A DNA stretch of 64,000 bases from Phoronis australis (taxonomy: Eukaryota; Animalia; Phoronida): contig NMRA01000031.1 in NCBI GenBank assembly GCA_002633005.1, positions 557,411 to 621,410 of the forward strand, written 5' to 3'. Below the pieces are notes generated by a model. It saw only the letters and a list, made by a program, of their open reading frames with translations. It was not told where the DNA came from and did no database searches. A program made the translations under genes and the position numbers. How positions within the stretch are numbered: position 1 is the stretch's first letter; every line of letters begins with the position of its first letter. Shown here one piece after another: positions 20,139 to 50,700 of the stretch.

Positions 20139-20544
20139 CGTCAGCTTCCAGAATGTGCTGTAGTTAGTATCTAGCACCTAAAAGTGGTGTTCACTCTGTG
20201 GTTGAAGCAGATAATCACCCATCACATGATGGGGATTTTGTTTGGTTTCGGCATTACATCTCGTAGTAAGTAAGAGCGTGAAGCCTTCCTCATGCATTGA
20301 GTGTTTACTGAACAGTGCGGATAGTTCTCCTAACAGTCGGTAGAGGACAGGACAGTACACTGATTGGAGTTCCTCTCACTAATAATACTTCACAATTTTT
20401 GTATTTGACTAAAATATTAAAACTTTTATCACGTAATTCTTTTATTGATACCATTTTCTTATCTGTTAGCGTAACAAAGATCAGGGTTGAGGCGTCGTTA
20501 AAGACGTTTTTCGACCATTTTTGATTTGTTCCATTTTAAGGAAA
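20139..20544. promoter_or_regulatory. Putative bidirectional promoter / 5' UTR region shared by SNX10/11-like and PFDN5
   Basis: The two inferred start codons diverge with only 406 bp between them. Confidence 0.65.
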
Positions 20545-25299: not shown

Positions 25300-28200
25300 T
25301 TATGGACAATACGCGCCCCTCATTTCCGCAACTTTCTTCAGGAAATCATGATGGTTTCCATGAAAATTTTCGTTGTCGATAATAGACCTCCAGCTGACGG
25401 CCAGTTCTGAGACACCAGGCTGCAGAAAAGAACAAAATAAGTTTATTAACAGTACTAGGTATGTGCCACATTTGAAACAATGATGCCTACCTCGTGTTAA
25501 CGTGATTACTAGTATTCACAGAATAATCAAATCATTCAATGATGGATTAAGAGTAAAACGCTTAATTAAGACGCAACCATAACCTCAAGAAGAAAATGAA
25601 CTAAATTTTAACGAGTGTTGAACTGTAAATTCTCCAATGGCCGTGTTGGTTAAAAGCAAAAACGTATTGTGCTGTCTTCAAAACCATCTATCAGTTTGTA
25701 ACAATAAACCAAATTACTCAACAGTACAGTTCATGAATATCTAATCAAACGTATAGAGGACCCCTGATTGACAGGTGCGGACTGTTACTGACAGCAGATT
25801 TATGATCCCCTTTGATAGGTGGCTGGCTGCCCCTCGCAGTCCTTCAGATGTCCAGGCATTGCTTTGCTGCTGTCGTCAAACAACAGATTTCTGTACTACA
25901 TCCTCTCCTTCACTTTGAAAAGTTAGTGTAAACAATTTGTGAATTCAAATGTCAATATCTTGTGGTCAGGAGACGTGACTCATGCACATGTGAACAAAAT
26001 GTAGTTTTGACTTGTTATGCAGAACATGAATTTTTGCCTTGGGAGGGAACCATCACACAATTGACCTTAAAGTTGAACACAATTGACCTTAAAGTTGACA
26101 GCTGATAATCTGAAATTACACACTGCATTCCAAGACGCCAACCAGCAAACTTACATCGAACAAAATCTGATCGAGTGTATCCCCAGTGTTGTCGTGGAAA
26201 TTAAGCACAGTGGTCTCAATCCAGGCATTGTCCGTATTTCTTGGGTCATCAGCGTACCCTTCAAACACCTGTCAATGAATAAACCATGATTATCCACAGG
26301 ATGGATTGCTCGTCTTCACTTTTTAAAGGCTTCAACTCTCAAAAAGAAAATGGTTTCAATTAAATTAATGTATCCAAAAAACAAAACGTTTTACTGCATG
26401 AGAAATTAGAAATAACTTAAAATTCCATTAATAAAGAAATAGACAAGTCATATTATACTATAAATTTGTAACTTGCAAGTCTCAAGAACATAAACTGGCC
26501 ATAAATTTGCCTTTTAAGTCTGAATTGCCATTTATTTGAGTTAGTGTGCGGTCATTTACAGGAGTAAGTACAGCTGACTATAGGTTAAAATTAGAATTCG
26601 TAAGTAGTTCATCACAACAGAACTATCATGAAGTCGAAAAGCTGCAAAAGTAGACTCCTTATGTTGCAATTATCTTTGTCAATAACTACAACTTTAGAAT
26701 TCAAAGAATTAACAGTACCTGGGATAACAAAAGTAATCAAAGAAAATGACCCAGAATTTCCTGCCGAACACAAGTAGTGTTCAGCGACACTAGCTATCCA
26801 CCACAGTTAGGAACGGCAGAGAATTTACAGTCAAATGGTAAAAAGGGTGTAGACAGAATGACAAGCCACTACCAGTTCACAGTTAGTGGAATAAGCTGTC
26901 ATGAAATGAAAATTGAATTTCATCCGATTACTTAAAATGAGATGTACTCCATTCTACATATTGGTCATTTTTTACAAGAAGGGGCTCTGCTACAAACGCA
27001 CAATCCATGTAAAAAAAATCTTCTGATTTTGATCACTTAACCTTATGAACTACATCTCAAATTGTTCCATAGTCAAATTAAAGTTGGTTTTTTCAAAGTT
27101 TCAGTTGTTATTGCTCAAGACCAGGCTCTGCAAGTTGGCTTGTCATGGCGTGACATTTTATGATTTCTATGAATTATGAACTGCCAGTTTTTGCAATCCC
27201 AGAAATTACTCCTCGTCTTAATAAGGAACAAGTTGAGGTCAACTTTATGGCGATGAGGGGTCTACAAATCAAAAGTTGGATATTGGACGGAACGCGGGTT
27301 TAAGTTAAGGCCTTCCTTTATATAAGTGGATTTCTTTGCATTTATTGCACAGTTCGGGAAGGTATTACTTAAAAGGATATCAAACCCAGTTTTGGGTCAT
27401 CAACAGATCTCTGAAAGAAAAAAAATGCTCTCTAACTCTCGACAACCCTCAAAAGTTTGGAGGAAAATTTGAAAAATCCTTTCAAAGTCTGCTAAACGCG
27501 AAGCGTGTCCTATGCTTTTAGCGAATTACATGGCCAACATGGGAAAAGACCACCCATGAAGGAGCATAATGTCCAATCTGTGACATAGGGAGCATGAGTT
27601 TTTTTAATTGATTCTTGCCTTTAACTTGGAAGATTAACGCCAATGATGCATTGGCAGGTGACAGAACGTGGACTGGTGGAAATCAACAAAATGGGGTTTA
27701 AAATCCTTTTAAGCAGCAACACAACAAAAGACGATTTAAACACTCAAACACGTCACATGATAAATGAATCAGAAGTAATTTTTATGCACGATACTGCCGC
27801 GTCACTGCACAAAAGCAGTAAACAAAGAGCAGCTGATACATTCACCAGTACCACGGTGGACATAGGTATCTGCCGCGGATACCAGAACATAAATACCAAG
27901 TGAGTAGATTTGCTGCTGATTGAATCAACACAGTGACGCAGATGAAAATCCAGTAATAAGCCTGGACTTGCATTACGTTTGGGAATTCATGACTTATGTG
28001 TGGTCAGATTGAAGCTTTTCAAGTATTATAGGAACTAAATTTACATGTTGTGGTATATCATTCAAGGTAGGCTTTAATGGAAATGTCTTTGCAACAGCAT
28101 CTGACACTGTGACAACTTCACATTTCTACCAATTATAAAACAGAATGGCCCATTAAACATACCATGTCTCCATGCTTGAGAAATTCTAAGATCTTGGCCT

Positions 28201-31200
28201 CGGCTTCAGACCTTCTCTCGTCAGTGAACAGGGTGGCCATCACCTTCTCGTCCAGGATACGTATAATACTCTTGCTCACCTCTTCACCAGGACTCAGCAG
28301 GTGCTGTAAACAACAAAATGCATGATTATCACTGACTCATATTCTGTTTTCATTCAGATATAATTTCCATTTTCCATGAGTTAATTTCACCCAAAAAGTA
28401 GATTTATAGCAACTTGCAAATTTTGTTGACAACATGAGTCCCAAAATCCCGAGGTGTTACAATATACTGACTCTCAATGTCCCTAACAATTGAGATTTCA
28501 ATTATATCACAAACTTTAATACTACAACATCTGTCGGGCAGATTCAACACATTCACGTCTTGGAAGACTCGAGTCATCCATGAATCGTTTACCTGACCGA
28601 GCACACTGTCACATGTACGCATGGCAGAAAAACGGGTAGTAATTCAACGAATTACACAATGGTACCGGAGATTTCCGAAAGAACCCCACCAAGAACGAGT
28701 CTCCATGGGTGCTCTTTTGAAAAAAGTTAAAAATGACAGCATGGGGCCTCAGTTTGATACAAACAAGGAATTTTGGGCAAAATGTCATGCTTTTCTGATA
28801 CTACTGAGATTTCAATTCCATTACTTGTTAACTGAGGCATCTCTGGATTTCTCTTATCATCGCCAAGCTGTCAATCAAGTGAAACCTCTATTTAAAAGTT
28901 ACTTTCAAAGGCCATGCTGTGTGTTAATGAGGGTGCTGCGGCCAGCAATACAGGTTTCCAAAAGATCCTCATCACAATGGTGGTGGTTTATACACACAAT
29001 CGGAAAGTTCACTCAGAAATCCCTGGTAGCGTCTGACACAAGATTGAAAAACGTTGAACAAAAAACTTACACCTGGTATAGACCATGACTTGTTGTCAGC
29101 TCTTAATACTGAGATGAACTCAAGAATAGGGAGACTGTTCTTGTAAACATTATTCCCACCAGCATCCTTCTTCCACCTTGAACAAAAACCAAGAAACTCA
29201 ATGGCACACAACACTACCATCACCCCTTTACAGCACTCTTTTAGAGTTGCCTTCAAATTAAATTATAGTTTAACGTATTTGAGAATGGAGAAAAAATTTA
29301 AGACCATTTTATGTGATATTTTATTTTTGTATTTGGTCTGAGGATATGAACGGAACGGAATAAATGATTTTCAATAATGGCAAGTGTTGCGTCTTCAACA
29401 ACTTTTGCATAATGGAAAACATCCCACTCAAGTACAGCAAATAGAGGCAAAATATAAGTTTTCCAGGTGATTTTGTCAATTTGGCATATTTTACTAACTA
29501 CACAATGTTTGTTTTCAACATTTTAGAATTTTTACAAGAAAAAGGAAAAACTAGAACTCATTAGACAATGTAACATTGTTTAATTGGTTTCAACTATTTG
29601 TCCATCTACACTAGTACGGAGAGAATCAGCTGACTTTACCTTGTAACGATAGGGTCCCCTGCCTTGTTGACACCCCACCGCCCGAGACAGCCACGCCCTA
29701 TCAGCCCTGTACGACCTTTAGGGTTCCTCGGTATGCCCTCAATCACTTGGTAGTCTCCAAGGAAACTTTTCCTGTCCACTTTCTTATCATCATCATACTG
29801 GTTAAATGGCAGAGCAGGTCGCGTTTCAGGTGTACTGAAGTGAAAACAGGTAGAATTATGTGACAGAGTGAACTGCACGCTAAATAGTAATTGTTAGGTT
29901 CAGGTTAATACTTAAATTTTTCCCAAAACAATAATTGCTAAAATTTGGTTAACGTGGTTAGCTATGCTGTAATCAAACTTTCAGCATAATGGACAAACTG
30001 GGTGGAGCATGACATATCGTTCTTATCAAACGCATGAATGAATGGACTGAATGATACTGACGTGTGTTCAACTGTCAGGTTTAAAGGCCTAGTAGCACAC
30101 GTTTTTAACCCGGTTAGAAGTTATAAGGAACCAAGCAGTACCTATCCCATAATCAATGCCCAATTTGTACTCAAGGAAAGTTTAAAATAATAGACGTGCC
30201 ACTCATGATTCCGAACAAAAGAACACACCGCCATTTAGAACTAACCGCGAAACCGGAAGTATAATTCATTCAGGAACCCAGGCTTAAGAACGCCGGCTGG
30301 AGCAGTGTCTGTTACAGCCTGCAAATGGGGATAAAATCATCGACAGCAAACCTTAACTTTTAAGTTAATAAACCAAAATAGGGACAATTTGTATTGAAAT
30401 TGCTGACAAAATGTGGCAAATAAATTTTGACAGACATTATTTTGCTGGACTCGGACCTGTAGCTGATGACCCGGTGCTGGCTGAGACCAGCACTGGCAAA
30501 AGGCGAGGGCACACGGTCGCCGGCTATTTTATTGGAATACATGGGTCAANATCATAAGTGTTGTATATTACAAAGGTAGTTTCATACACTTGCATAAAAT
30601 TCCGGACTAGTCACAGTCTTGTGCCAACAATTGAATACCAAGGCCGCTGGTAATTAGACTATATTAAGTGTGCTTTACTTGGAGTATCTCTGGTAAACAA
30701 ACATAACAATGAACATGCATTATCAAAATAATTGAAAAAAATTGCTATACGATTAGAATATCCTGACGACTACACTTGCAAAAATATTCAAAATAAATTT
30801 AGACAGGGATACTAAGATACCGGTGGTCTCCCGCGACTTCCGTCATTCAGGAATCGTTCCTGAACTGATGTACAGGAACTTAGGTCACAGAAATAAACCG
30901 GAGTAGTCAATGATTTTCTGATCTCGGCAGAGTTACAAAACTTGCTCAAAAGGCTTCTAGTTTGATAACAGAAAGGAGATGAACATTTTGCCATGCTACA
31001 TATTACTTAATTTGGTATATATTTTTAGTTTTTAAACTAGATTACCCTTTGAGATAAGGACTTTAAATGATATAATTTAACAATATTTGAAAAATCAGCA
31101 CCCACCCCAATGTGCTTATAAGTCACTGTTATCAGTTAAAAAATAAAAATTGTCAGCATTTCAAAAATGTATTATGTCAAGTCCATTTCACCAGTCAGAA

Positions 31201-32758
31201 ATATTAATCCATCAAAAATTAAATCAATGATACAATGCACTTTTTTACTTCCAAGAAAGAGGAGAGCTGACTTCTGAATATGACTTAATTGTACAGTAAT
31301 ACAAAACAAATTTGAGTGACTTACTATTCATCGCTCATTAAATTGACATCAGCATAGTATGGTTGCTCCAAGACTGCTTGTGTGGTGTACTTGATAGGGT
31401 CATAGCCCAAATACTCATCCTGAAATGGGCAAATCGTACTTTTAATAGAGATATCCACCGATAGACAAGCATCCACAATGGAAGAAGCAGCTGTTCCAAA
31501 AAACAAAACTAAGTGATAAATTGTATCCAACCGGAATGTGAGGTTTTATAGAAGGACTTATCTGAAGGTCCGAGTGGACGCACTACGCACTAGAACAACT
31601 GCAGTACGGATCTTCAGTGAAGTGATGATCTGGCTTATACACGTCATATATAAGCACTTCTCATTTAAAAAGAGACTTTCCCACTTTGTCCCAAACTGAA
31701 ATTTAATATTACAATATAGATAAATATCAACATTTTGTCTTTAAATTTGGTTTGTAATCGATCATTACCCTTCTCGATTACAAACCAAATTTAAAGACAA
31801 AATGTTGATATTTATCTATATTGTAATATTCCATTTCAGTTTGGGACAAAGTGGGAAAGTCCCTTTTTAAATGGGAAGCGCTTACATGTGGATGCTCTAC
31901 TGAATCTTGAATTTATTAGTGAGGTGACGATCTGGCTTGTATGCCTAATACATGTGCATGCTCTACTGAATCTTTAACTGAGTTTCAGGTACTCATTTTA
32001 TCTTCAAAATCTATGAACGTATTTTACGAAATAGGCCAGACTTAAGTTGGTCAGGTCAATATATTTTAACTACTAATTAGCACTTTAATAAATCAAGAAC
32101 AAGAACTTGCCGAAATGACAAACTTGAAATAAATTCTATGGCGCCCTTCTGTCGACGTAATGGGCAGGTCTTCTCATTGCATGCATCTACTATTAGTTAT
32201 AACCTCAGGACACTGTTGGACTCTACACTTACCTGCAGTACGGTTACCTAACATAATCACGCCACTTAAGTTTAATACATTCTTAAGCCTCAGTCGCACC
32301 ACCACTTTGATTTACATTCTTAAGCCTCAGTCGCACTACCACTTTAATTTTTATTCTTAAGCTTCAGTTGCACCACCCGCTTTAATTTACGTTAAGCCTT
32401 AATCGCACCACCACTGAGTTAGACTCTCAACATAACGCATCTTAACAGGTCACAAACATCTCCCACATTCACAAAGAAACGACTGCAGATGCAGCACTCT
32501 CAACAATGCAGCTACAGATTGAAGCAAAATCTGCTTTAGAGTCAGTCACCTAGTTTTCTGATTCGTCAATTGAACTAATCAACGCAGAGTGAGTACTTAC
32601 ATCCCAGAGAACCTTGTCGTCGGGTACTTTGAATCTCGTGAATGCTGTGCCTGGGTAGGGTGAGATGCGAGCCTGATAGTGCAACAAACTCCTCTTTCTC
32701 ATCAAATCCTCCAAGTGATCCTTCTCTCGTTTTAAACGTTCCTCTTTATCTTGTTGTT
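25300..32758 (-). CDS. TRPM2: TRPM2-like gene: seven exons encoding the NUDT9-homology domain
   Basis: [56 protein letters not shown]|[37 protein letters not shown], ends [12 protein letters not shown] at 25300. Confidence 0.9.
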
Positions 32759-35700
32759 CTGTCGACACATTATTATCATTAGTCTAATATGTACAGTAAA
32801 CAATAGGGGTTACACATTGAAATTCAAGAGCCAGCTGAATGCATGTATTAAACATGGTTTTGCTGACAGCAAAAGTATACATTTTCTTCCAACTGGTCAT
32901 GTAAGACCCTAGAAAACGTCCAAATTTGGCTAAGTTCGGAACATCATATCTCATAATTATGAAACTCACGGGCGCTATGCTTAATGCAACGTTCTCCAAA
33001 ACACTGTTGGTAATTTGCTTTAAAATATGCAGCTGCAGTATAAAAACTATGACTTATGATTTCATGAAAAAATGCAAAAAAAAAAACAAAAACAAAACAA
33101 CAAAAAAGACTGGTAAACTGTTACAGCCTTCTTTTTTGATATTTCATCTTGAAATGGAATCTGGTCATGCTGTCGATACCATTGTTTTACTGTCAATGTA
33201 CCGTTCTTTTTTGCTAAATTTTTAAGACATGGTCACCCAACTGATGACAGATTGGTAAAATATCAAAAAATAAATTCTACTGGCTTTCTACCAAATAAAT
33301 AAAAATATTTTTTTCAGTTAAAATCTCGTTTTGCATATATGTGGCTATATACACTGACTTGGGTAAAGTGCTTCATAAACCTTCATCTTAGGAAATGAGG
33401 GGAAATGAAGTATGGCAAAGAAACTTACAACCTTAAAACTTTTAACAGTTTTGTGATATTCTGCAAAAAGCGCTCATTGCTACTAAGCTTTGTCTTAAAA
33501 TGTTAAAATATGATTTTGCCCCAGTTGACACCCAATATTTTGGTATATATAGTTAAATGTGAAAACATTATAACACAGATGCAGCTGGGCAATACTCTTA
33601 TTGATGGAAGAGCGGTACCTATAAAAATGCTGTTCAAATACTTCAATGTGAAAACATCAATATCAGATTCTATCTAGCAACCTTAACGACGTATAGCCCA
33701 ACTAAACTACCCAATAAAAGAAATAACCACCTCCACATTTACTGGATTTTGCGCAAAGCTAACTAGCAAGAAGCAAGCTTCTGATGAGTTTCCACACAAA
33801 ATCAATAATTTTTATTTCAAATGTTCACTGATTCATAAAATATGGGGAAATTGTGATATGTTAAGTTTTTGTTAAATTCAGTGTATAACATCATTTACAG
33901 ACACTCTGCTGCAGTCTGCAACCGTGCACAGGCAAAGGGTTATGCCTGAAGTGTCCACATCTGTGTCAGTTTTACACAGTTAGTTACGAATAGTACATGA
34001 TTACAACAAAAAATCAAAATGTTTTGTTCATTTCAGTCAACATAATGCCATGTTAAAACCTAAATTCTAAACCAGGTCCATGGAAATTGGGAATCACGTG
34101 GTCTCCTAATGATTTTAACGTTGCTGCGAACCTGAGCCACAAATTGTCATGAGGTTTAACACAGGACAACAAGTCCACTGAACAACAAAATGACATGACA
34201 AACAACGAGAATTGATGAAGCAGGAAGGATACTAGGCAGAGACAGCACACTATGCACCATGTTTAAATTCAAAAAATGATTATCTATAAATTGCTATATT
34301 TTATGCTTTAACCATAAGTTGCTTTTAGCAACACTTCCATGACATAATTATACTTTCACGGCAGCCAGTCCTCCTTCCTCATGATCTGAACTCACTAACA
34401 GTGTTCTTTTCCCATGAACAAAACTTTTTTCGCGCAAGTTGTATTCCTTTCTTATTCACCACAACTGAACACATTGCATGCCTCAACAATCATAGGTTTT
34501 TAGTAGCATTTTTTCAGCAACAATTCTATTGATGAGAAAAGAAAGTTGTTAGTGAGAATGCTCAAGTGGTGCGTGAGGGAGGAAGGCTGGATAGTGAATA
34601 TCGGGCTCTGGCTCTAGCAACACTGAACATGCCAAGCACAATAATCTTGCATAATACCTTTCTCAGCTGCAATAAACAAGCGACAAAAATGAATGCAGTT
34701 TATTCACCTATTTATCAGTCATCAACCAATCACAAAGAAATCACAAAGAAATGAATACTTTGCAGCAAAACCGGAAATCTTTACACAACACACACCACCA
34801 AAAACCAGTATGTACTCACTACAAACAACTCAAAGAAATCATACAGAAATGACTAATATTTTACAGCAAAAATTGAAACCTTCATAAAACACACGCCACC
34901 AATGAAGCTCACTTATTATTTTGTAATTAATTCCTGAAACGTAACAGGTATCGTAAACATTCACTTAGTTTCTCTCTTCTGCTTATTTGGCATTACATCA
35001 ACACGATCAACGACATTTGAAACAGTTCCCACACTGTGGAAGCAACAAGTAGCATTTAATGTCCTCGACTGAAAGTCATATTATGCAGAGCTATTTCAAA
35101 AAAGCTTTCTGACTATCTTAAAAAGTTTTTTAATCTGGGCAGTTACAAGTTTAAGGGTAGATTTTCTGTCGCTAACTTATTAAAAGAGCTAGAAACCTAC
35201 TTTGCATCACAAATTTGATGAAGCCAACTTATCATGAAAAATCAAATTAGTCTCAAATTATAGTTATTTAATCAAATTTGAGGTGATGTCAGGGCACCTG
35301 AAGAATGGACAGTTCGTTATTGTGCAAGACAAGTCCCTACAAGTGTCATGCATGTCATTGTATTCGCAGAGCTTGGTCTTATGGAATAACGAACAGCTTT
35401 TTGTAAACCCAGAAATCACTTCCAATCTCACTACGGAATAAGTTGATACCAATTTTATGTTCATGTTACAAATGATTTAAATCAAAAGTTTGTTTCTAAT
35501 TGGACAGAGTGTAGGTTTATAGAAAGTATTTATTATAATTTCATTTTGAAATTAGTTCATTCTGACTTTACCACGACACTGCATTACCATAAGTACTGTG
35601 CACCTAAAAGTGCTCACTAGATAAACTGACCTGAAATTCCTGTCATAAAGGTTGAGTGCAAGCAGTCTATCAATACCAATACTATGCTTTCTGGACACAA

Positions 35701-38700
35701 TTCCAATTATTCTAGTATATTTTTCATAACCAACATTTTAAAAAATTGAGACAATAAAGAATTTACTAGAGAGTTAAGACACTGAAAACACTAGGCTGAC
35801 TAATCTTATTAGAAAGAAAAGAGTATCAAAATTTTTTCTGAACACTTTTGGCGCACACTACAAGTTAATTAATAGGTACCTTGTAACTTGTCTTGGTCAA
35901 CATCGCGCAGCTGGGGAGGCTCCAACTTCTTGGAGGACAGGTTGTTCTCAAGCAGGGACTGCATGATGAAGTTGAGTGCCTTGGTTGTGTGCTGCATCTG
36001 TAATGAGGTCATGTCAGGTCATGTCAAAGGTTAATGGAGATGGGTCATATGATGAAAGTCCATTATATGACCATGTTAAGGAATAGGGGAAGACACACTC
36101 CCCCACCAAATTACACAACAAATAATTATTTCTACACTACTCCCAGGATATACTGAAATGAATGGTGTAATAAATTCAAGTGAACAAACCTGATTCTCCA
36201 GGTATGTGAGCCTCTCGTCTAATTTCGGAGATATTCCACTCTTTGGGCCATTCTCAGCAAAATCCTCGAAATCTCTGGTGAGCACATCAAGTCTAAAACA
36301 GGAGAAACAGACATTGAAAACCGACGAGTGTAACTTTAAGTACGAGAGGAAAACACTTAACAGCTTAGTTCCTCCTTTTATAATCTGCTCCTAATTGCTT
36401 TTCAGCCTCAAAACTAATGGGAAACTCGTAAAATGAGTAAGTGAGTATTGCTCAGATTTTTATCAATTAAATCTAAAGTAGACAATCAACTGCACCTAAG
36501 AGAATAAACTCTCATGCTCGATTGAAGTTGGGAGACAATAGTTGACAGATCAAGAGGCAGAAGTGTGTTCAAAGTCAAGAGGTTGACTCAGTGGTTACCA
36601 TGGAGACTGACCGAGTGTAAAGTCAATGTACACAGTTATACTGGAGAATGCCATCACCATCACAGAGTTTCAACTACCATCGATTTTAAAGTTTAACAAA
36701 CAAGGAACATGAACAGGGCATGTGGACGACAGAATACCTTTCCTTAGCAAAAGCCACCCTGTTTTCAGTGGTCTCCCCATCCAAGTACTGCGCCTTCCTA
36801 GTGTAATCTTCAGCCTTAGAACTCTCCCACAGAACAATCTGCTTGTCATCATTCTCATCTTCAAATCTCATCTCTACAACACCACAGCACCCATTACTTT
36901 TCCAAGTATTTCACATTAACACTGACTGGACGCATGAAAGTATAATTATAATTGTTTTCTGTTGTAAAGATTTATACTGACTCATTCACAGTTTATTCTA
37001 TCAGCACGGACTTGCTTTAAAGTAGAGCACGCTCAGCAAATAGACAAGTAAGTGGTTAAGTTATCCACGTCGGTTGTTTTTACACAACTACGCAATAAGA
37101 CAACATTGAATGTGCATTCAATCAAAGATTTTATGAAAAATAACCATAGAAGTAATTGTAATAACTCTTTAGTTTATCAATTATACTGAATTGAGTAAAG
37201 ACATTAATTAAAATGACCGTGAATATTATCTATCAGTCAAATTCAAGAGGAAAACATTCAAAGTTGAGTAATTAATGACATTAATTAAGATCAAATATAG
37301 ATACAGATACAGATACAGAGAAACACATCACTACACCTCAAACATAGTTCATACAACAATACTTTCACAACAGTATGTACAACATGCAGAGTCGAGGGCT
37401 ACAAAGAGAGAGGGAGAGAGAAAGAAAGGGGTATAGATGACTACAAGTGTGTTAAGCAACAAGACCAAGATAAGTTCCACACGTCATTAAGATTTAATCA
37501 GGATTCAGTTTCTTTCCTTCCAATTTTCTCATTTCCCATAATTCTCTAGCATCCAATCCTCAATCTCCCATAAGCATATTGTTCTGAGCATAAACCTGGT
37601 CTTTCATTTCCATTTTTCGTTTTTCAGATTTCACAATTTGTCCAACTAATCTACCAATAATCAGAAAACTGTATTTCCCACAAGCAAGTTTGTATTCTGT
37701 GCATAAACCTTGATGTGAGTCGGTTAATAAATACTAAGATATATGGTGAGAATGGGTGAAACTGAACACACAATTCAGCAGATTTATAGATACTCGCAAG
37801 TTTAAGAAAATTTGAACGTAAACTTTAACAAATGTACTTATCACTCACACGAAATCAACAAATTCTGCTAAAAACAGACAGAAATAATGGGAAAAGCCAA
37901 CAGAATCAACTCTCTCATATTCCAGAAACTGCCTCTTGGGGGGTACTCCAACTATTTACTGGCAGGGGAGTGCAGGTGAAGACTCAAGATACCTACCCTA
38001 TATCCAGTACACGAGATATCAATTTTGAACCATGGTCACCACCAAAACATAACCATTTAAAAATGAATCCTACTATTGTAGGAGAAAAATGGACGCTGAT
38101 AACATGCGACCTTTGACTCTCTTCAGCAGCACCCCCCATTCCATTTGTTAGTGAATAGGAGTATTCTCCAGGAAAGTCTCTGTTCACTTACTAAATCCCC
38201 AAAGTCTTTGCTCAGAGCAACGGTAAATGCAAGCTCGGCAAGCAAGGTATGCATGAGACAAAATGATAAAAGGGGGCGCTAGGGGTGGGTGCTCGTAGTA
38301 TTCTAGCACCAGGTGGTATCGCATGAAGTGCCAATGTTTGTCTGTCTCCTCCTGGATTCTGTCAAACGTGTAGCTGTGGAAGAAGAAGCAGTCAGTTTGT
38401 ACGACATCAAAAGCGGAAAGCGAGCTGCCCGAGAAGGACTGAGTGCAAGGAAGCTGACATGAGGTCACTGAGTACAGTGACCTAAGAGGTTCCAGGCTGG
38501 ATTGAGCTGGACTGAGCCGGCATCAGATGGAATGATCTGTCATGTGCTTGAGTTAGTAGGAGCTGGATTTAACCACACAGGACAAAAATGCATTAGTTTG
38601 AGGAATAAAGAGTGAAGTTTATTGGAATAACATCCACTGAGCTCAATGACATCAGCTGCTCAGGAGTGAGCAGACGTGAGCTGACATGAGCTTCAACAAA

Positions 38701-41700
38701 CATCGTGACATTAGCCGGATTCAAGTGATGGTGATTACATAGGATCAAGCAGAGAGTGCTAGCTGGTAAAGAAAGGCAGCTGAGAGTTAAGACAGACCAA
38801 AATCTCTTTTGCAGGCATTCACACGAGAGGCAATTATGCTATTTGTAGCCAAACTTCCAGATAAAAGTCAACACACCAAATAAACTATTCATCAAAGGTG
38901 TAAAAGCATTTTGATACAGGATAAAACGTATTTATGCCTTACAAACTGTTTTTGGTCTGGTTTACACACAGAATAGGAAGAGTGGAGTAGGCATGATGAT
39001 TTGATAAGAAATACTACTTAGACTATAGACAATGGGTTACTGAAAGACAGGCGACTTACTGAAACCCCCGATGGCTGGGGGTAGCCGTTTGCACTTGCGG
39101 ATGCACCAGCGGATTAGCAAATACAGGTGCGAGATAACGATAACAGGGGGCACTAGGGGAGGTTGCTCATAGTATTCGCGCACCAGGTGGTAGTACTGGA
39201 ACTTCCAGTAGCGATCAGTGTTCTCGTGAATTTCATTGAATGTGTAACTGTAAGAATACAGGCCAGGAAACTTGGGTTAGAAAAGGGGGAGTAAGGATCA
39301 GTTTGCCTCAAATTGGCTGAATGTCAGTGACACACACACACACACAGTGTCCGGAGACAATGGATCTATAGTGGCTCCAGACAATACCTGGAAAAAATCA
39401 TTGACTACAGGGTCCCATTTCATGAAAAGTCAGAAATTTGGTCTTACGTTACCGAATAAAGGATAGCCATTAACTATTAGCACACACACACATAGCCTAG
39501 AATCAATGTGTATATCCTCAGACTTTCCTTTTTGTTTGTATTTTTGCTCAAGTGAAATTTAGACTATAAATTTCTGACTTAAGCATCAAATCACTTTTTA
39601 TGGAACAAAGCGACTGCCGGAACTGCACTTCAACTGGGGATAAAAGCTGTGACAACATACAGGTGATTGGACCTAGTTGGCAGTGATAATTAACAGGGCC
39701 CAAATAGGTTAATTTCCCAATGATTACACATCAGATACTTAAAGATTGGAAAGGAAATAGCAGTTCATGTGTTTGCAGCACAAGCTCAGTCCATACAGCC
39801 CGTGTGTATGCAAGCAGCTTTTTACCACAATCAAAGCAAAATTCCATGCAGCACATAAAAGGCCCATATGCCAAAGTCTGAGATAATTAACATCTTCCAA
39901 GTAAGGCAAACCTTCCTCAGTTTTGGAAAAACAACAACCCATATAACGCATTTTCCAATTTCAAAGGCTGACACGAGTACAATTCACCAATCAATAAAAA
40001 TGTCAAACAAGCAACAATGACGGTGCGCACTGACAGACGACAAAGGGCTGCCAATCACCCGTTGAAAAACAGCATGCATCAGTCCAAAAATATTCATGAA
40101 CTGTGCTGTTGACCTTATTGTCAAACACTTTGACAGCACTTTGGTAAGCCATATTGCATTCTGATAACTATAGGAAGTCTTCATAACATCCATGTGGTGC
40201 TAAACAGAATTCGACTGACACAGCATACAGGCCTTAACAACAAAATTAAGCAGTGTGTAGCGAAAGTCAAATAATTCCACAGCTATCGTTTCTTCGGCCT
40301 CCTTCTGACCCGGAAGAAAGTACGAATAACAGGTCAGTTGTAAACTAGAGACTTGTATTTTTCCCACAGCGAATGCTGTTGGCATTGGAGAATGACAACA
40401 ACAAACAGACAAGCTAAGACTACACACAATAGAAAACTTGATTCAGGAGAATATCATCAAGAAAAACAAAATAGGCCATTGCCAAGATCAGGCCCAAGAG
40501 ATATTTGCCTGGACTATTCCGGTAACGTTATAAATAATCGTAAAGAAGACCAGGCCAGCAGTCCCTTTGCTACCCTGGCATTTTCATGACTATGAGACCT
40601 TGAGCACTGTCTGATAAACTGTCAACTGAATAGAAACAGTAGTTCTGTGCTTGCCGGTCTCTCTCCAGTCATAATTAAATGAATGTGTTAAAGTGATAAC
40701 TGCATGTGGACAGTGAACTCGTAATGATTCATCTTTGGACTAGTCTTGACTATGATCAGGCTATAAAAGAAGTTCCAGCTAAAAGAGTACGATGACAGAA
40801 AATAGCAAAGACGACTGTGAACGCATTATTGAGCATCAAGTATTAATACGAAATATTTTCAAAATTCTAAAAAATTAATGTAGAATAGTGCGTCGTCACA
40901 TTTGACCAGTGAGCTGAGTAATGGTCCACAGTCTGAGACCAGCCTGCTGGACAAGCCACATACAAAGTAAGTCACTGAGCCATGGGGGACAGACTTACTG
41001 AATCCAGCCACATGTGGCTTGCCCTTACACCTCCGTATCGCGGTATTCACGACAAGGAAGCTAAGGTAGAAGACGTTGAAAGGGGGCGCTAGTGGTGAGA
41101 ACTCGAAGTATTCGAGCACTAAAAAGTACATCTGGTACTTCCAGAACTGGTGTGACTTCTCCTGAATTTTGTTGAACGTGTTACTGAAACATCAGGAGCT
41201 TGTGAAACACAGATACATAGAGACAAGCTAAAGAAAGCAGTTTCACCATCATAGTTTTCACTCTTCTCATTAAACAGTGTTATTTTCAAGGACATTTTGA
41301 AGACGGTCCAACCTACATATTACAAAAGCTTAGTTTTCATTAATTGTACTTAATATTTCCCAAGTAAACAAACATGGTCCAAGCAATCTTAAGAAACAAT
41401 TATTAATAAAGAAGCAACAGAAAATCTTGTTGCACAATCAAAGCATGTGATGAGAATCGAGGACTTTTCAGGACTAGTGGTAAATTCATTGCAGGTCAGT
41501 AGATTCAAGGACTTTTCAAGATCTCTTCAAGTGCAGCAGTCAAATTCATGGACTTTCCAAGGAAGGGGCAACCCCGAGGGTATCCAAGTTGCTACAAGCA
41601 TTTTGTCAAAGAGTGTTTTTCAGATGCATTTAATGTTAAACATAATTATATCAAGTCAAAACCAACATGATTAGTTTAGGGTTACGAATTCCCTTTTTAA

Positions 41701-44700
41701 CTTTTTGAAAAACAGACACAGCATGTAAGCAATGTTACAAATATGAAAACGACAAATATATCCAAATATTAAAAACCTTATTAAAGAATGTTTGCTAAAT
41801 TGAACAAAAACATCTCCAGGAGTCTGGTCACAGTACACAGACCAAGTAATTATTAAATTCTGTGTATAGATTAGTATGGGCAAAATAGTACCACGTATAC
41901 TTAACTAGATATTACTTAGCTGTTCACTACAACTGTCTAAGATGACAACAGATGACTGACTAACAGTGATCATACCTGAACATGGCAATCAACAGGTTGA
42001 ACATGAGAACATTTGTGAAGAGAATGTAGACACCAAGTAGAATGGGTGGCAGGTCCACGTTGGCAGGGCAACGGGTCATGGTACCGTTAAGGTACAGCGC
42101 CTCATCATTGGTACACTGGCTAGTCACTGAAATAATTTAAATAAAGTACACGTCAGAGTGAAACCCACCTAACCAATGGCGAGTGATGGTTCTCATTTCG
42201 GTCATTATCAGTGTATTGCGAGATTAGACCACGACTAGCTTGCACCAATGGTCCTTGCGATTGCCAGATGGCATTATTGCTGTTGTGAGTAGTCTAAAGA
42301 ATTAAATTTAGTTTCATTTAATTAACGCTATGTACATTACAGAGTATATGGCAGCTAGTTTTATCGACATAGTACATATCAGGGTAATGAAGGCAGATTG
42401 CCTTATAATCCACACAGACACAAATACTTGACTGCATTAAAAAACCCTTTTCTAGTGATTACTCAGAGCTAATTGAACGTATAATATTGGAAATGCAGTC
42501 AGCTTTGTTTAGACTTTCGTGTAATTTTCACAGACAATTTGAAAAGCAGGGAACTTTAAGTCATGCAGAACCTTATCAACAAGTTCATTCAGCCAAAAGT
42601 ATTGATTTTAATTCACTAAATTAAAGCAAACAGATTCAGAAAGTGGAATTTTTTACTGGTATACCAATCTGCCATATTTTTTAGTAAAACTTTAATTAAT
42701 AGCAAACAGCTACAAAACAACGACATTAACAGCAAGTGACCAAATTTTGATATAATTATTCAAGGTGAAGATTCCGAAATGCTGTTGCACTTTTCTAAAT
42801 TATTTTTTCATTGTTTTAAGTAACTTTGATTTTTTTCATAAAAATCATGAGAACCAAGTTTTATAGCCCTCAAACAAATTTAATTTTAAGATACATTTTA
42901 AAAACAATTCCCAACAGGATTTTAGAGAGCAGTGCACAACAGATTTTTCCAGGGTCCTGTAAAATCTTAAAGATTTACTCACATTGTGCACAAGCATTTT
43001 TCAGCAAAATGTAACCTACTAACTTCAAGTTAAAGTGAGATTATGTCAATCAAGTCGGTACACGGTGTGACAACTATGAGTGACTGAAGAATGATATGTG
43101 TCACTCACTCTCCAGTTCCTCCAGGAAAAGCTCGCCAAACATTTGAAAGTATGCCTTCCTAAGGACACCAGTGACGAGTGCAAAATCCAGTGGAGAGTTG
43201 GGGTATATGATGGCCTGTACGGCCACGCCATAGGCGGTCACAAACACCATGAGAATGATGATAAAGGAGAACAAGTCTACCATCTGAAACAAATAAGGAC
43301 ATTACATAATCTTAGGCCAATCATTCGTTTGCCGTACTGTCCTTCACCCTTTGAGATGGACACTATGGATGCATGTGTCAGCTAAAGTTATATTGCGTAC
43401 TTCTTAGCTAGCATGACTACTACCTTGGCACACCCCATGACAGAATTGACCTTCATCACTACAACAGTGTTGCCTATTTTTCATATAATGGCAAGTCTAG
43501 TGTTTATGAGCTTAACTACTAAGACATCTTTTAGTAACAAGAACGAATCACACAGGTGAAATGTATTGGCCCAATATGAGGGTCGAGCAATTAATATATT
43601 ATAATAACCAATACTGCTACACATAGTTTGCTACGAGGTACCAACAATGAAAAATAAAAGAGTTCTGGTTGGGTATACCGTATTTCAAATCATTCACAGT
43701 CTGGTACAAAGCTGCACCTCCATTTTGATTGATATGAATTTGTATCCGGCTGATGACAAATGATCATCAGTCATGCATTATTCATTGGAAACCTGTTTTG
43801 ATCATTTATCAATACTCAGTGACAAAAAATCATCACAATTATCACGATTGACGATAAACCTTGCTTGAATAACTATATCAATCAATATAAATTTTCATCA
43901 ATCATTCATATCATATATTATTCAATAAAATTTATACAAAGGCTGACACAAATTCATATAAAAAATTCTTAAGATAAATAATGATGAACCAAAATTTCCT
44001 GCGTATACCATGCAGTACGGACTACGCACCATTCTGCCAATCATCACCAGCTTAGGTCCCAAATTTTTGCTGACTGAGAAAATGCGAAGAATCCTGAAGA
44101 AGAATGTCATAAAATCCAGAGATAGGATGATTCTGGAGGCCTCTTGACAATCTAAGCAGACGTTGGGTGGGATCAGTCGCAGAATGTATCCAATCAGGAA
44201 CATCGTTATTGTGATGACGTCCAAAATGTTCCACGGGTCCACGATGTAACGAACGATCTTTTGTCGAAAATCACTGGATTCGACCGTGAACAACTGCAAC
44301 AGATGAGTAGATTGACCTTAATGAATCGGACAGGCGATGTGACTCACATACACTAAGCGTGTCAAAAAGAAACGACAATTTCTTAAGTTATCAAAATGAC
44401 CATTGGTCCAATGTTGGTCCATAGCTTTGCCAGTTTCAAATTACAACAACGCAGACCATACTAAAGACTTCCTGGTATTTATAAACAATATTCTAAGTAA
44501 CATACAGCGAAACTATCATTTTATGTACTCCAACTGTTGCACGATTATACTGCAGACACAAACTGACATTAACTGAGTATGTTTAATAATTTCTCTAATG
44601 TAATTTTCTTTTTAATTGATCTAGCTTAAAGTTGAAGTTTTTGTCCAGTGTATATTGTAAAAATTTCCCAATATTTCTAAAGCTCTCAGTTGTAACAATG

Positions 44701-47700
44701 AACTATGTGACCCAGAAGAAATTAATTCAGTCGGACAAACTGGTGGCAGTCACTTTATTCGTCCTACATTTAGGAATAAACTCACACTTTTCCATTTAGA
44801 AAGTAGATTGTTCAGAGTTTCCGACGATGGAAAACTTGTGCGGAAAGCTGATGGTCTGCTACCCATAATACTCACCTGCCTGAGTTCTTCTGCAAACAAT
44901 GTAAACACCCATCCAATCAAGATAAACTCCCAGAAACTGATGGTCTCTCTAAAGTCCGTCAGCAGGATGCCAGCAAACAGTAACAGGAAGAGTATGTAGG
45001 AGATCTTCAATAAACAAACATTTTGTTGTTAGTACTTGACTAGAAGGACATGCAGTACAAACTAAAAGTATTCAGACAAAATGGCCTCAAATTATCCATC
45101 ATGACTGACAGTTGAGCAGCAGCCAAATTTATGACCAGGACAGCAGGAAAGTAATCTTCTCAAACAACCACAAATGATCGGGAATGAACCGGAAAGTTAG
45201 CAAAGTGCTGAAGCTATTCTGCAATTAAAATTCTGACCCTAATAGTTATCACCAGTAAGCTGAACACTGCAACTGACAGCATTACGTCACTTTCACAGCA
45301 TTCAATCTGGTGAGAGCATGGACCAGGATGAATAAAGGATTTAAAACTCTTTTTTCCACTTACACAGTTGTGTATGAAAGTAATGACAGGAGCGTTGTAG
45401 AAGAAGGCGATCCTTTGGTACCACGTAAGTCTCTTGCCACTGTTGGTGATGTCCACACCGTGGTTCATGCCACTATACACTGTGTCCTGACGGTGCACCT
45501 TCTTAGGATTAACAGAGCTGTTGGAAGGGACACGAGAAATGGACGTCATCTCAACTGCATCGCCATTGGTCGTTATACGTCCTGTCTTGATCTGCGTAAA
45601 GAGCGGAAGTGATGCATTGTTCACATATGAACAAGACTACTTTATACTCTGGACTAGCCATATACTAATCAAAAGTAATTATTACTGTAACAATACAGCA
45701 TTACTAGTTATCTACCTGTGAAATGGAGCTGACATACCAAAGCTAGGTGCTTAAGTCTGACTCGAATTGAAGTTATTAAGCGGTTCCATCAGTCATAAAA
45801 TTTTGCTCGCACTTTCTTTAAGACATGAGACTGCCTCCTAGCAAAGGCCATTCTCATGAAACAACATTTGCAAAGTGTCACTATGAACCATTGTGCAGAC
45901 TCAACAAGGCTTTATTAAGGGTGATACCTGGTTGAAAACATCAGGGAACAACTGCAGAGCCTAACGTACAGGTGAGTGTACAAAGACAATGAATCTAGAA
46001 ATTCCCAATTCATAAGTTAAAAGCTACTGGCACGCCATAGACAGTTTCAGTTGGAAGCTCAAATCTTCTGTTTGCTGTTGTCAAAGGCCTAACTAACTGA
46101 CTGTAATTGGAGCAATTGTCCTAGTGTGCGGCTTTAAATAACAGCAGTGAAAGGATGCCACAAGGTCAAATCTTGGTTAAAAACCCATTTCTGCGCATAT
46201 AAAATAGACTACATGCAGACAAAAGTAGATAAAATGATCAATTTTAAGAGATCAAAATGATATCTTAGACAAGAGTTTTAGTTTCATTGAAAACAAAAAC
46301 AGACTACAAGTCAAGAGGACAATTAGGAGACAGCAACTATAAGTCATTACTATGCTACCAACTGTAAACAGAAATAGATAACAGACCTAAAACAACAAGG
46401 AACAAGAGTCCAAACACCTTCAAGGTAGTGAAAACATCAATACTTACAGGTTGTTTGTCTGAGGTCTAAAAATGCCCAAAAGAACCATGAATATGGTGAT
46501 GCAGCTCCCAAAGGTATACAATGCTTAAATTAGTACAGGATGCATTTAAAACTTACCACTCATCTGACAATAGTACACGTCACCTCTATTACACACCTTC
46601 CAAAACACACTGTGAGTGGTCGTACATTATATAACAGACAAGTAACATCCTTCAATGAATGAATGGCTCACCTTTTTCTTCTCAATTTGCTGCTGAAGTC
46701 TGGCATCTTTTGTGATCTCATCCTCTCGGTAGGAAATCAGCAGGAAAATGAGTGGTGGACATAAAATACATACCCACATCTGAAAAAGATAGTGCGACAC
46801 CTATTGGTGTAAACTAACACCTGGTTTACAGTACTGAGAATGAATTGAAAGCGTTAATCTATAAGCATTAGGTTTCATGGTTTCAGGTATAGCTACAAAG
46901 ATGGTGGAATGGGCGTGAATTGTTTTGCAATGTATTGGTTGCTAATCATAAAACTATAAGTCTCTTGACTGCTCACAAAGTTATTTGTTGCAGAAAGCAA
47001 TTGGTTCATGTTCAACATTAAATTGACAATACATCAAGCCGGATTATTACCACCAGTTATGTGAAGTCAGAAAAACTGAGGACAAGTCGACATGACACAG
47101 CCATGCGATTGCCCAGTATTTCAATACCATACGTATTCTCAGTCGACTTATCAGTGAACTGAACATTTCCCAAAATTCACATTTTTCAAAAATGCAGTGT
47201 TTGACATTCCTAAGTTTCTCAGTTTGAATGCACTGGGCATAAACCGCAACGCTATTGAAGCGCCTTGTAAGAACACGACCAGAGGCCTTGCCTACCCGAA
47301 GGGAGTTGACCTGCGAGGACATCTTGCCATTCCATATCTTATAGAGAAGACTCTGACAGCACGAGTGGGAGATGAAAGCCTTATTGTCCGCCTCTACTGC
47401 CATCAACATGGACGTGGACGAGCCGTACGACTTGAGCTCACGAATTAACAGTAGATGTGCCTTCTCCTCCTCGGCAAGGTAACAATGATCCAAAACACCA
47501 ACCGCTAGCTCTTCAAACTCACTGTAAACAGTACAAATAGTAGGCATATAATGGAAAGCCTTATTGTTTGGGTCATTGGTGAACATAGAAAAACTATCAA
47601 CAGAAAGGTGTGAGTTCAACATCTGACTCTTGCAGTCAGTGTAATATTTTAATTTAATTTATGCATTGTTCCAGATGACTTGTAGGTGTATAAACGAGTA

Positions 47701-50700
47701 TCAGACAAAGCTGTGGAATACGCTGTAATGGATTAGCATCCTGCACAAGGTGAGTCAACAACCTGTGATGGATTACCATCCTGCACAAGGTGAGTCAACA
47801 ACCTGTGATGGATTACCATCCTGCACAAGGTGAGTCAACAACCTGTGATGGATTACCATCCAGCGCAGGATGAGTCCACAGACACTCATCCAATCACACT
47901 ACAGAAATCAGAATTAGCAACAGGCCCCAGGTGACGAGCCTGGTGGCTCACCAAAGATTTACTTTTAAAAACATACCTTTGACCAAAACCACCAAATTTA
48001 CTAAGTTTGAGTTTTGACTAAAAAACTGACCAATCACACCTCACGAAGTTTGAAAATTTAACTCAAAGGGCGTCAGGAGATTGGTCAATTTTCAAGTTAA
48101 GTTTTGAACAAATTTTGGTGGCCTCTGATCTCGACTACACTAAAAAATGGTAAGAGTTTAAACATCAATTTTTCTAATTTTAAAATTAGAGAAAATTTGG
48201 GAATGGTTTGTGTACACCGTTGTGTGAATCATGCAAAAGTCAAACAACTAAATACTAAACAAGGACAGAAATGCTGGGTTTCATTAAGATCACACTCATT
48301 TAAAAACTGTTGCTGCACCAAACATGATACTCGAGGAGGCAGTGTGGCCTGGTTGATAAGTGCCCGCTTTCTTTACTCGAGGTCGTGGGTTCGAGTCCCA
48401 CCAGGTCACACTGCTAAACCATTGAGCCAGGTTTCTAGCTCCACAGCTTGGTTTTAACCATAAAGCATAAAAATATTTCCAGGTGATCAGTGCAATGGGC
48501 CCACATGCGAGGCCTGCGCACGTCTGCTACGTGTATCAGACCGCCTGCAATTATTTATTTTTTATAAACATGATACTGGAATATTTACCAGCTACTCACC
48601 TGGCTAAAACGAGAATACCGTCATGTACCTCAGTATCATCAGTCTTGTCAGACATCTCCTTCAGGATTTTGGAGGCTAGCAGAGCTGGTGCTATAGATTC
48701 CTGAACAACAATATGGAAAGAGGTAACTACAGCAACATCATGTATTGTGGTGACAGACAAGTCACAATCACAAAACTGACTACAGGATACTTATTTACAT
48801 ACTGTGGTGAGCTACAGGGTGGACTAGTTTGTTCAGATTCCTAAATGTTATGATTTAGAAAAACGGCAAAACTTTTTCAGACTATCACTAGATACTAAAA
48901 TAAAAGAGGACACGGCTTTTGCAACTTTTAAGTTAACATTTGAGTCACTTTTTAAGGTATACAGAACCTACCTTTGTCTCCTCCCAGAAAATCATAGCCA
49001 TGTCTCGACGATTCATCAGTACCGACCATATGAATAGTTCACGTGCTGGGTCATCAAAACATGGCTCTTGCATCGCGTGCTTACTGGATATACGTGCAGC
49101 TAAAAATACAGAATGTACCGTTAGATTGGCACAGTCAACAAGTATCGAATTTGGAATCTCACTTACGTAGGCAACAAAAAAATGGCTTACCAAAAAGAGG
49201 CCATCCTTAAAATAGTTTTATTTCTTCTCATCCTACCCTCACTCTGACATGGGTTTATAACACATTTTAGGTTTTCCAAATTTTCCACTCAAGAGGAACG
49301 CACATTTCTGTCGTTTTGTCAGACTTCAGATAAAACCATTGAGTTGTGCACAAGCTTTACAGTCAGTTGTGGAGGAGGAAAATATTGAAGGATTTTCATT
49401 TTATGTCTTTTCCGTTTTCTTGTATTTAGAGCTGCAAAAATATAAAGCTTCTTCAACCTATTGCATGTGACACCTGAATAAAAAAAATAAGTCCGATAAC
49501 TGATAAAAGGAAAAGTGATTGTTTGAGACCAGTGTCAGCGCAGAATCGAACCTAGAATTTCTGTGGTCGCAGTCTAAGACTTTGCTGCTGGAATTAATCC
49601 TACTTGATAAACGGCAGAATGTTTTAAATGTATCTAATTGGTTAAGTCACCAGTCATGACTTCAGCAAATGTCTGGAAGACAGCAATGAGAATTGGACAT
49701 TTGAAGAAAATAACAAAACAGATTTTCTTGTTCATAGCTTTGGTCAAAACCAACAACTTCAAGAAGCCTATGCCATCTATCAGTAATTCCAGAAATTTGA
49801 TCTTCAAGACTGAGGTAAAACTGATAAAGTCTCTTTAAATTCTCTGTGCTCTTTAGACAGTTCACGTAACAGATATATTTGACAGAGGTACCACAACATT
49901 ACACCAAGGTCTACATTCCAATTCTCCAATAACACCAAACATTTTACAAACAACAATAAAAACTAATTGATCGCAACAGAACTGGTAACGATTTTTGAAA
50001 AAAGAGAGCTGATATTGATGATGTCAGAAAAGAGAGTTGATATTGATGATATCAGAACTGCCAGCTGAGGTCAGCCCTTGCAAGCAAGAAAAATAGCTGT
50101 TTAATTCTGTGTCAATGAACACACCAGTGTTCATAAATTAGTGCCCAGTCCCCTGACTAATAGTTACTCACTGTCTGCTTGCATGCAAACAACAAAAAAT
50201 AGCCTCAAAAATCTCCTCAACATGCAAAAATTAAATGAATTCAGTGCGCACATCTAGGCAGCATCACGCTTAGTCAACATACTCGCCAAAAAAGCAGACT
50301 TGCGAGATCTCACATTTTAGCAACTTTCTGGCATCTCCTTATAAGCTTAACATGAGAAGACAATAATGTAGACTGGCAGAGTTTCTTAATATCAATGTTA
50401 AGAAAAACAACGTGACAAATAATTTTTAAAGAATATAAGAAACCATAAGGACAAATTTACAGTGATAATGAAAACAGTTTAAATAAAATGCCAGTGCTGA
50501 AACAACACCTAAGTTCCTTACCAGCCCGTGTTGTGCTAACTAAAACAGGACTAAAATGTAGTCTGATACGACTAAAATATACTACTGTGTAGTCTAGTAT
50601 GAGTTCTTTGTAATCTAATATGGCAACTTAAAGGAAATTCAAATGCAATATATGACAGATTTCTGTGCACTATTCATGGTGAACGTCACCAACCACCAAG

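Follow-up and report, generated by a model that had tools for sequence, protein, structure and literature searches.

We analyzed a window of 64,000 nucleotides from the phoronid Phoronis australis (assembly GCA_002633005.1, contig NMRA01000031.1, positions 557,411 to 621,410). The window contains a gene for a TRPM2-like channel, which we assign to the TRPM-beta group, and this gene has three diverged copies (A, B, and C) of the exon that encodes the TRP domain. Our preferred explanation, which we consider reasonably probable, is that the copies are alternatives: B or A is joined singly, C is likely treated alike in other cells or at other stages, and the exchange likely retunes the coupling of phosphatidylinositol 4,5-bisphosphate (PIP2) and calcium to a gate that stays the same. 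The exons and introns involved are listed below. All coordinates for the cassette and for the TRPM gene are positions within the window, on the minus strand.

41976..42126, minus strand: constant S6 exon, with a phase 2 end; it encodes the gate isoleucine and two bases of the gate serine codon
40999..41183, minus strand: cassette exon A, 185 nt; the most diverged copy and a minor form, joined to 36873 in 3 reads, all from run X1
39060..39247, minus strand: cassette exon B, 188 nt; predominant in the RNA runs examined, with joints from the S6 exon and to 36873
38192..38373, minus strand: cassette exon C, 182 nt; intact, the sole copy with the TRP-box arginine, with no joint listed in RNA
37320..41863, minus strand: cassette introns with sense-strand RNA coverage, unlike the neighbouring introns (from the RNA depth table)
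36738..36873, minus strand: constant exon that follows the cassette (phase 1); it falls in the stretcher or rib helix region, and its acceptor is poor in pyrimidines
36190..36292, minus strand: constant exon further downstream, with RNA joints on both sides

The S6 donor at 41976 and the acceptor at 36873 flank all three cassette exons, each of which is open in frame, preceded by an AG acceptor, and followed by a gtaagt donor. Every length is 2 mod 3, with entry in phase 2 and exit in phase 1, so the reading frame is kept only if a single exon is included. When we joined the exons with a script, all three single-inclusion forms were open through the next three exons, and all five other forms (none, the three pairs, or all three exons) had a premature stop. 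The split codon at the junction of the S6 exon and the cassette encodes serine in all three forms. An earlier note, made from the sequence alone, had described three homologous, stop-free exons of these lengths and had argued that just one of them can be included at a time. Splice sites, frames, and alignments bear out both claims. The shared motif that it described is also present, but not with the spacing that it gave: the W and the Y are five residues apart.

The amino-acid identity among the copies is 41-53% in global pairwise alignments (or 44-55% in a MAFFT alignment), and their DNA identity is 56-61%. There are exactly three copies in the window according to tblastn (E = 1e-12 to 1e-19; the next match has E = 0.17). 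In other words, these are tandem internal exons that are homologous, of similar length, and of the same phases; every copy is open and flanked by canonical splice sites; and the wrong combinations stop early and were not listed in our low-depth RNA data, so there is no sign of productive skipping or double inclusion. These are features of homologous mutually exclusive exons.

We also considered whether the copies could be an artefact of the assembly, or pieces of paralogous genes. The same gene does contain two false tandem duplications. At 51951-54913 and 55379-56714, TRPM exons are duplicated in tandem with near identity (97.7% over 1491 nt and 97.6% over 671 nt), and both duplications are split by single ambiguous bases (Ns), at 53429 and 56050. 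These two are probably assembly artefacts, and they would double exons in gene models. The cassette exons are different. They are far more diverged from each other, the closest Ns are at 30550 and 53429 (none is within 7 kb of the copies), and the four introns around them have no extended similarity to one another. The earlier note had drawn this same distinction, and correctly so. Furthermore, RNA covers the introns between the copies, and A and B are spliced to the same downstream exon. This largely refutes the artefact explanation, which we consider very improbable.

For RNA evidence, we used three raw-read runs and one contig set over 35900-44400. The reads examined amount to about 18-19% of each raw run, and a joint was listed if it had at least 3 reads. 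Of the seven listed joints, four connect constant exons and have 8-24 raw reads each. The joint from B to 36873 had 22 reads across the three runs (11, 4, and 7) as well as one contig, and the joint from the S6 exon to B had 7 reads (6, 0, and 1). The joint from A to 36873 had 3 reads (3, 0, and 0), and it implies that the donor of A is used while B and C are skipped. Overall, 22 of the 25 raw reads for the listed downstream joints use B. Among the seven listed joints, none was a skipping or double-inclusion joint (at a threshold of 3 reads and at low depth). Of the sequence differences listed, a single one falls within a cassette exon (at 39079, in exon B), and it does not change the amino acid.

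The earlier note had proposed that one locus encodes three channels by exclusive choice, and that junction counts would reveal this. The counts support both joints of B and the downstream joint of A, which is to say exclusive choice between A and B; for C, the proposal draws on the conservation of its sequence. Several aspects of the RNA data weigh against our reading. All three raw-read runs are from one study; A is supported by 3 reads of a single run (X1); and at the threshold of 3 reads, neither a joint from the S6 exon to A nor any joint into or out of C was listed (in 4 of 4 runs for C). Also, because even the constant joints had just 8-24 raw reads, rare wrong joints could escape listing. 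At the depth read, the RNA neither demonstrates the use of C nor rules it out, and given how well C is conserved, we think that its use is likely.

Another explanation for the lack of joints for C is that only B, and perhaps A, is functional, and that C is dormant or decaying. The RNA depth over C, which is no higher than over nearby introns, would fit with this. However, the depth was too low for a minor joint to be listed, and C itself does not look like a decaying exon: it is free of stop codons, it has canonical splice sites, and its acceptor is preceded by a long AG-free stretch. Divergence between the copies points the same way. Synonymous divergence (dS) is 1.0-3.3 and non-synonymous divergence (dN) is 0.45-0.53, and dN is below dS for all three copies, with C well below in comparisons to both A and B. 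(The earlier note had suggested a dN/dS check for each exon; run as a comparison between copies, it gave dN below dS.) We also randomly mutated B to the observed DNA distance. The observed protein identity was reached in 0 of 20,000 trials, for A and for C, and 7-8% of the trials stayed free of stop codons; this control takes no account of mutation bias or indels and does not separate present from past constraint. Finally, profiles of orthologues score C about as well as B (85 vs. 78 bits, and 84 vs. 85 bits). We conclude that a dormant C is unlikely.

How is a single exon chosen? The introns between the copies are 1751 and 686 nt, which is too long for steric exclusion. We did not find a Dscam-type docking or selector element common to all three flanks, although weak pairings could escape a search within one genome. 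Docking-site selection and steric exclusion are thus not supported. The donor sequence is gtaagt in all three cassette exons but in none of the five constant donors that we examined, and the shared acceptor at 36873 has the fewest pyrimidines of the 8 acceptors examined (9 of 20 positions). We propose that three equally strong donors would compete for one weak downstream acceptor. Commitment to an exon would then be slow, the cassette introns would remain unspliced in many RNAs, and wrong combinations would be removed by nonsense-mediated decay. In C. elegans, 14 of 19 clusters with exons whose lengths are not multiples of three depend at least partly on nonsense-mediated decay (PMC4165533; here and below, papers are cited for the parts of their text that were available).

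The RNA depth across the introns may reflect such slow commitment. On the sense strand, the depth in the cassette introns (37320-41863) is about 0.1-8.7, as compared to 0-0.12 in the intron bins at 42148-42715 and 43284-43851. Alternatively, this coverage could be from a retained-intron or early-ending transcript. If so, the extra copies might mainly regulate expression, with intron retention or unproductive joints reducing the amount of full-length channel, or with a form that ends after the TRP domain. The intron-spanning coverage does end near 37320. But protein-level conservation of A and C would be unnecessary for such a role, A keeps the frame where it joins the next exon, and mollusc records (see below) show productive exchange. 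Nor was any site listed where many molecules end. Overall, a mainly regulatory role seems quite improbable.

We noticed two other features of these introns. The last cassette intron contains one ATTAAA (at 37498) and one AATAAA (at 36997). The intron before B contains a short inverted-repeat element at 39426-39560, with loose read ends and a high-depth contig; it is possibly a small mobile or polymorphic repeat.

What does the exon swap? Position 1 of the exon corresponds to residue 1087 of TRPM2 from Nematostella (nvTRPM2), whose gate residues I1082 and N1086 are upstream. The gate residues are not swapped, and the gate is common to all forms. The exon itself covers TRP helix 1 and the re-entrant TRP helix 2 and reaches into the beginning of the TRP loop (PMC5976436). 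The earlier note was right that the exon carries the inner end of S6 and the TRP helix (it encodes the TRP domain), although the gate residues are encoded before it. The glutamate of the calcium site (E1110 in nvTRPM2, or position 24 of the exon) is retained in A, B, and C; in nvTRPM2, the E1110A mutation reduces the affinity for calcium (PMC5976436).

In contrast to the calcium site, residues that correspond to PIP2-sensing positions of TRPM8 vary. By residue spacing, Y981, K995, R998, Y1005, and R1008 of TRPM8 correspond to positions 1, 15, 18, 25, and 28 of the exon. In TRPM8, R998 contacts PIP2, Y981 sets the gating energy, and K995Q, R998Q, and R1008Q all reduce PIP2 sensitivity (PMC9805079). 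Positions 1, 15, 18, and 28 are N, K, M, and F in A; Y, K, Y, and Q in B; and Y, H, R, and H in C. In other words, C has the equivalent of R998 but not of K995, A and B have the reverse, and no copy has the equivalent of R1008. These residues are usually conserved: among 222 distinct homologous segments (some of which were retrieved with a profile of the cassette exons), position 18 is arginine in 206 and position 28 is arginine or lysine in 216. Exon A's TRP box is similar to the TRPM fragments P0036, P0078, P0091, P0116, P0133, and P0153, all of which lack arginine 18; in five of them, position 28 is not basic either. Given these substitutions, the copies probably tune lipid-dependent gating while the acid of the calcium site is retained. 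We infer that the swap would retune the coupling of PIP2 and calcium while the gate stays the same, that the forms would differ in PIP2 dependence, run-down, and open probability, and that C would be used like A and B in other cells or stages.

However, all of the copies could be used and yet the swap might alter a property other than PIP2 coupling (such as calcium access through a peripheral tunnel, the response to temperature or ligands, trafficking, or assembly), or might alter little. The exon also encodes the re-entrant TRP helix 2 and the first part of the TRP loop, and it is there that the copies differ most. The major form, B, already lacks both arginines, so the rules from TRPM8 may not transfer. 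The correspondence to TRPM8 is itself inferred from match coordinates and the residues of orthologues, instead of from a printed alignment. And arginine 18 is retained in 6 of 11 alternative copies from molluscs, which are described below. These points count against retuned PIP2 coupling. On the other side, the copies differ at positions 15 and 18, the second of which is strongly conserved elsewhere. Position 18 is also not arginine in 5 of the 11 mollusc alternative copies, as compared to 0 of 36 other orthologous exons. On balance, we think that an effect on some other property, or little effect, is unlikely, and we prefer retuned coupling of PIP2 and calcium.

To compare the cassette to relatives, we searched with a Lingula protein and then looked up isoforms in 20 clusters of proteins; for the large clusters, we considered 15 of 75, 15 of 27, and 15 of 18 members. 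In 5 of the 20 clusters, the listed members included two homologous versions of the TRP-exon segment from one locus. These pairs are predicted proteins from RefSeq: XP_033724836.1 and XP_033724821.1 from Pecten, XP_021362499.1 and XP_021362498.1 from Mizuhopecten, XP_078332505.1 and XP_078332504.1 from Crassostrea virginica, XP_048236492.1 and XP_048236491.1 from Haliotis, and XP_025081227.1 and XP_025081224.1 from Pomacea. The two proteins of each pair are identical apart from 56-64 residues that start right after the S6 gate. As in the phoronid gene, this is a one-for-one exchange, in the same family, of the stretch that begins just past the S6 gate and extends to the TRP loop. Unlike the phoronid gene, there are two types instead of three. 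The annotations are automatic, and we found no publication that covers these pairs. Among the members considered, another 14 clusters showed the usual exon type only, and one (Saccostrea) showed the alternative type only. A further point against our reading is that none of the 20 clusters showed three types; for example, six isoforms from Lineus and three from Liolophura are all of one type. We set aside the differences within the clusters for Mytilus, Dreissena, Lytechinus, and Asterias, which we attribute to species, paralogues, or splice sites instead of exon swaps.

Single models from Littorina, Batillaria, Lottia, Mactra, and Saccostrea carry the alternative type. In a model from Nucella (P0174, residues ~1178-1290), both versions are in one chain, with the alternative one first; this is probably a mis-annotated mutually exclusive pair. 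Other searches for relatives gave little. Near-identical relatives of any copy were absent from the best 150 of 1085 matches from a profile search. A word-based search with exon A gave 4 candidates, none of them significant, and a similar search with the S3-S5 exon gave 3 partial proteins among 26 candidates. In the ESM Atlas, the only matches for exon A were below 0.8, which is uninformative.

The 11 alternative copies from molluscs form a single clade that spans bivalves and gastropods (bootstrap 100), so the mollusc pair is older than their split. In other words, the either/or TRP-domain exon is ancient in molluscs. A, B, and C lie outside this clade in the tree of exons (48 columns). However, all 5 of the constrained topologies that we considered passed the approximately unbiased (AU) test (p = 0.42-0.51), also on the 48-column alignment, so trees of the exon cannot resolve the order of the duplications. 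A common origin of the mollusc pair and the phoronid triplet would be compatible with these tests. A basic residue is present at position 28 in 47 of 47 orthologous exons but in none of A, B, and C, which favors a separate triplication in this lineage. We rejected another potential sign of a recent triplication, the shared GF end of the copies, because exons from Owenia and Lineus and the alternative exon of scallops end alike. More tentatively, it is possible that the exon was duplicated independently in molluscs and in the phoronid lineage, and that the duplicates have since served, over hundreds of millions of years, as a splicing dial that sets gating, with the PIP2-contacting arginine dropped repeatedly and the calcium-site acid kept. 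If so, a single gene would give rise to channels that differ in lipid dependence, and in the phoronid three types of subunit could also mix in a tetramer.

The host gene runs across much of the window:

25309..60710, minus strand: TRPM-beta (TRPM2-like) gene, approximate coding span, with the SLOG/melastatin region, S1-S6, TRP domain, coiled coil, and NUDT9H (from tblastn of full-length homologues, Pfam, and a tree)
44873..45004, minus strand: S1-S2 coding stretch (approximate), with the calcium-site glutamate and glutamine (E893 and Q896 in nvTRPM2)
44030..44278, minus strand: exon for S3-S4 and the S4-S5 linker, with the calcium-site asparagine and aspartate; the donor at 44030 is from RNA and the start is approximate
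43109..43283, minus strand: exon for S5 and the pore, with the FGE filter and RNA joints on both sides
29639..29836, minus strand: NUDT9H coding stretch (E = 4.5e-16 to nvTRPM2 and 5.9e-16 to NUDT9 structures)
28163..28303, minus strand: predicted Nudix-box exon, with the box RILDEK (best E = 1.3e-6 among 184 long homologues; predicted from sequence)

In tblastn comparisons, full-length homologues cover the window from about 60710 to 25309. The gene encodes the parts expected for TRPM-beta (named after PMC13143021): a SLOG/melastatin region, a six-helix channel domain, a TRP domain, and a C-terminal NUDT9H. It has matches to structures in PDB and to the Pfam families PF18139, PF25508, and PF00520 (SLOG, TRPM2-like, and ion-transport), and Pfam had no match for exons A, B, and C, the NUDT9H stretch, or the Nudix-box exon. 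In a FastTree phylogeny from 914 columns of constant exons, the gene is placed among TRPM-beta proteins with a support of 0.914; the tree covers TRPM-beta and its relatives, without TRPM-alpha, TRPM-gamma, or TRPS, and the label of the outgroup, "beta-like," is our own assignment. The gene groups with TRPM-beta proteins from cnidarians, echinoderms, amphioxus, and lophotrochozoans and with vertebrate TRPM4, apart from paralogues that lack NUDT9H. The nearest proteins are from Lingula, Lineus, Tubulanus, and Owenia (support 0.905), and the gene lies outside the clade of bivalves and gastropods (0.992). By this tree, the host is probably a lophotrochozoan other than a bivalve or gastropod, although the placement is weak.

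A close known counterpart is nvTRPM2 (PDB 6co7), which matches the phoronid gene in clade, domain order, calcium-site residues, and the FGE filter (PMC5976436, PMC6461439). Unlike the phoronid gene's predicted box, which has the EF-to-IL change of vertebrate TRPM2, nvTRPM2 has a catalytic Nudix box (PMC6461439). That is, the predicted exon reads RILDEK and does not match REUXEE, the canonical box of the catalytic invertebrate chanzyme. The boxes RILGEE and RILRQE are inactive, and RILDEK has the same EF-to-IL change that inactivates vertebrate TRPM2, while the pore retains the FGE filter of invertebrates. PMC6461439 describes invertebrate Nudix boxes as canonical. Other lophotrochozoan orthologues, from Owenia, Pomacea, Patella, and Elysia, also lack a canonical Nudix box.

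Elsewhere in the window, there is an uninterrupted frame of 688 residues at 4491-6557 on the plus strand, and a prefoldin subunit gene (Pfam PF02996) at 20491-23792 on the plus strand, tail to tail with the TRPM gene. We presume that the former encodes a SMYD4-like protein, with TPR plus SET and MYND domains, and that the latter is prefoldin subunit 5.

Tandem mutually exclusive exons are well known in ion channels. Homologous mutually exclusive exons are enriched in these genes and have often arisen independently in orthologues, and in CACNA1, SCN/para, slowpoke, and NALCN, homologous tandem exons are likewise included one at a time (PMC9741552). Invertebrates also have mutually exclusive clusters of three or four exons (PMC4165533). 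What appears to be new here is the exchange of the TRP-domain exon of a TRPM gene. In the survey in PMC9741552, "TRP" does not appear in the main text. The closest case in the wider TRP family may be exons 12 and 13 of Drosophila TrpA1, an exclusive pair that alters gating (heat sensitivity), but this is another subfamily, there are two exons, and the exchanged part is before S1 and not behind S6 (PMC4843867). Drosophila trpm has six alternative exons (PMC2865541). The available parts of the nvTRPM2 papers (PMC5976436, PMC6461439) do not mention a choice of TRP exons, and neither do those of two TRPM phylogenies (PMC13143021 and PMC7306681, the latter of which dropped isoforms before its analysis) or of three surveys of invertebrate TRP channels (PMC12980990, PMC8539334, PMC13483504). 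More broadly, we found no description of TRP-domain exon exchange in TRPM genes in the full-text literature searched, which includes few subscription papers and no supplements; exome-wide lists, for example, could contain one. The earlier note gave no precedent for a three-way cassette in TRPM2, and the literature searched gave none either, but the note missed the two-way version that is already present among the RefSeq isoforms of molluscs.

Because the general device is well known, the surprise is limited. Nevertheless, the TRP domain couples calcium, PIP2, and the sensors of cytosolic ligands to the TRPM gate, and the usual tools for studying it are point mutants and chimeras across subfamilies. 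Here are natural, selected variants of the TRP domain on an identical backbone: three in this phoronid and two in easily obtained molluscs (scallops, oysters, abalone, and snails). These variants would allow a direct test of the roles of TRP-box residues in PIP2 dependence and desensitisation. Also, studies of a single isoform of TRPM2 from a mollusc may overlook a second type of channel.

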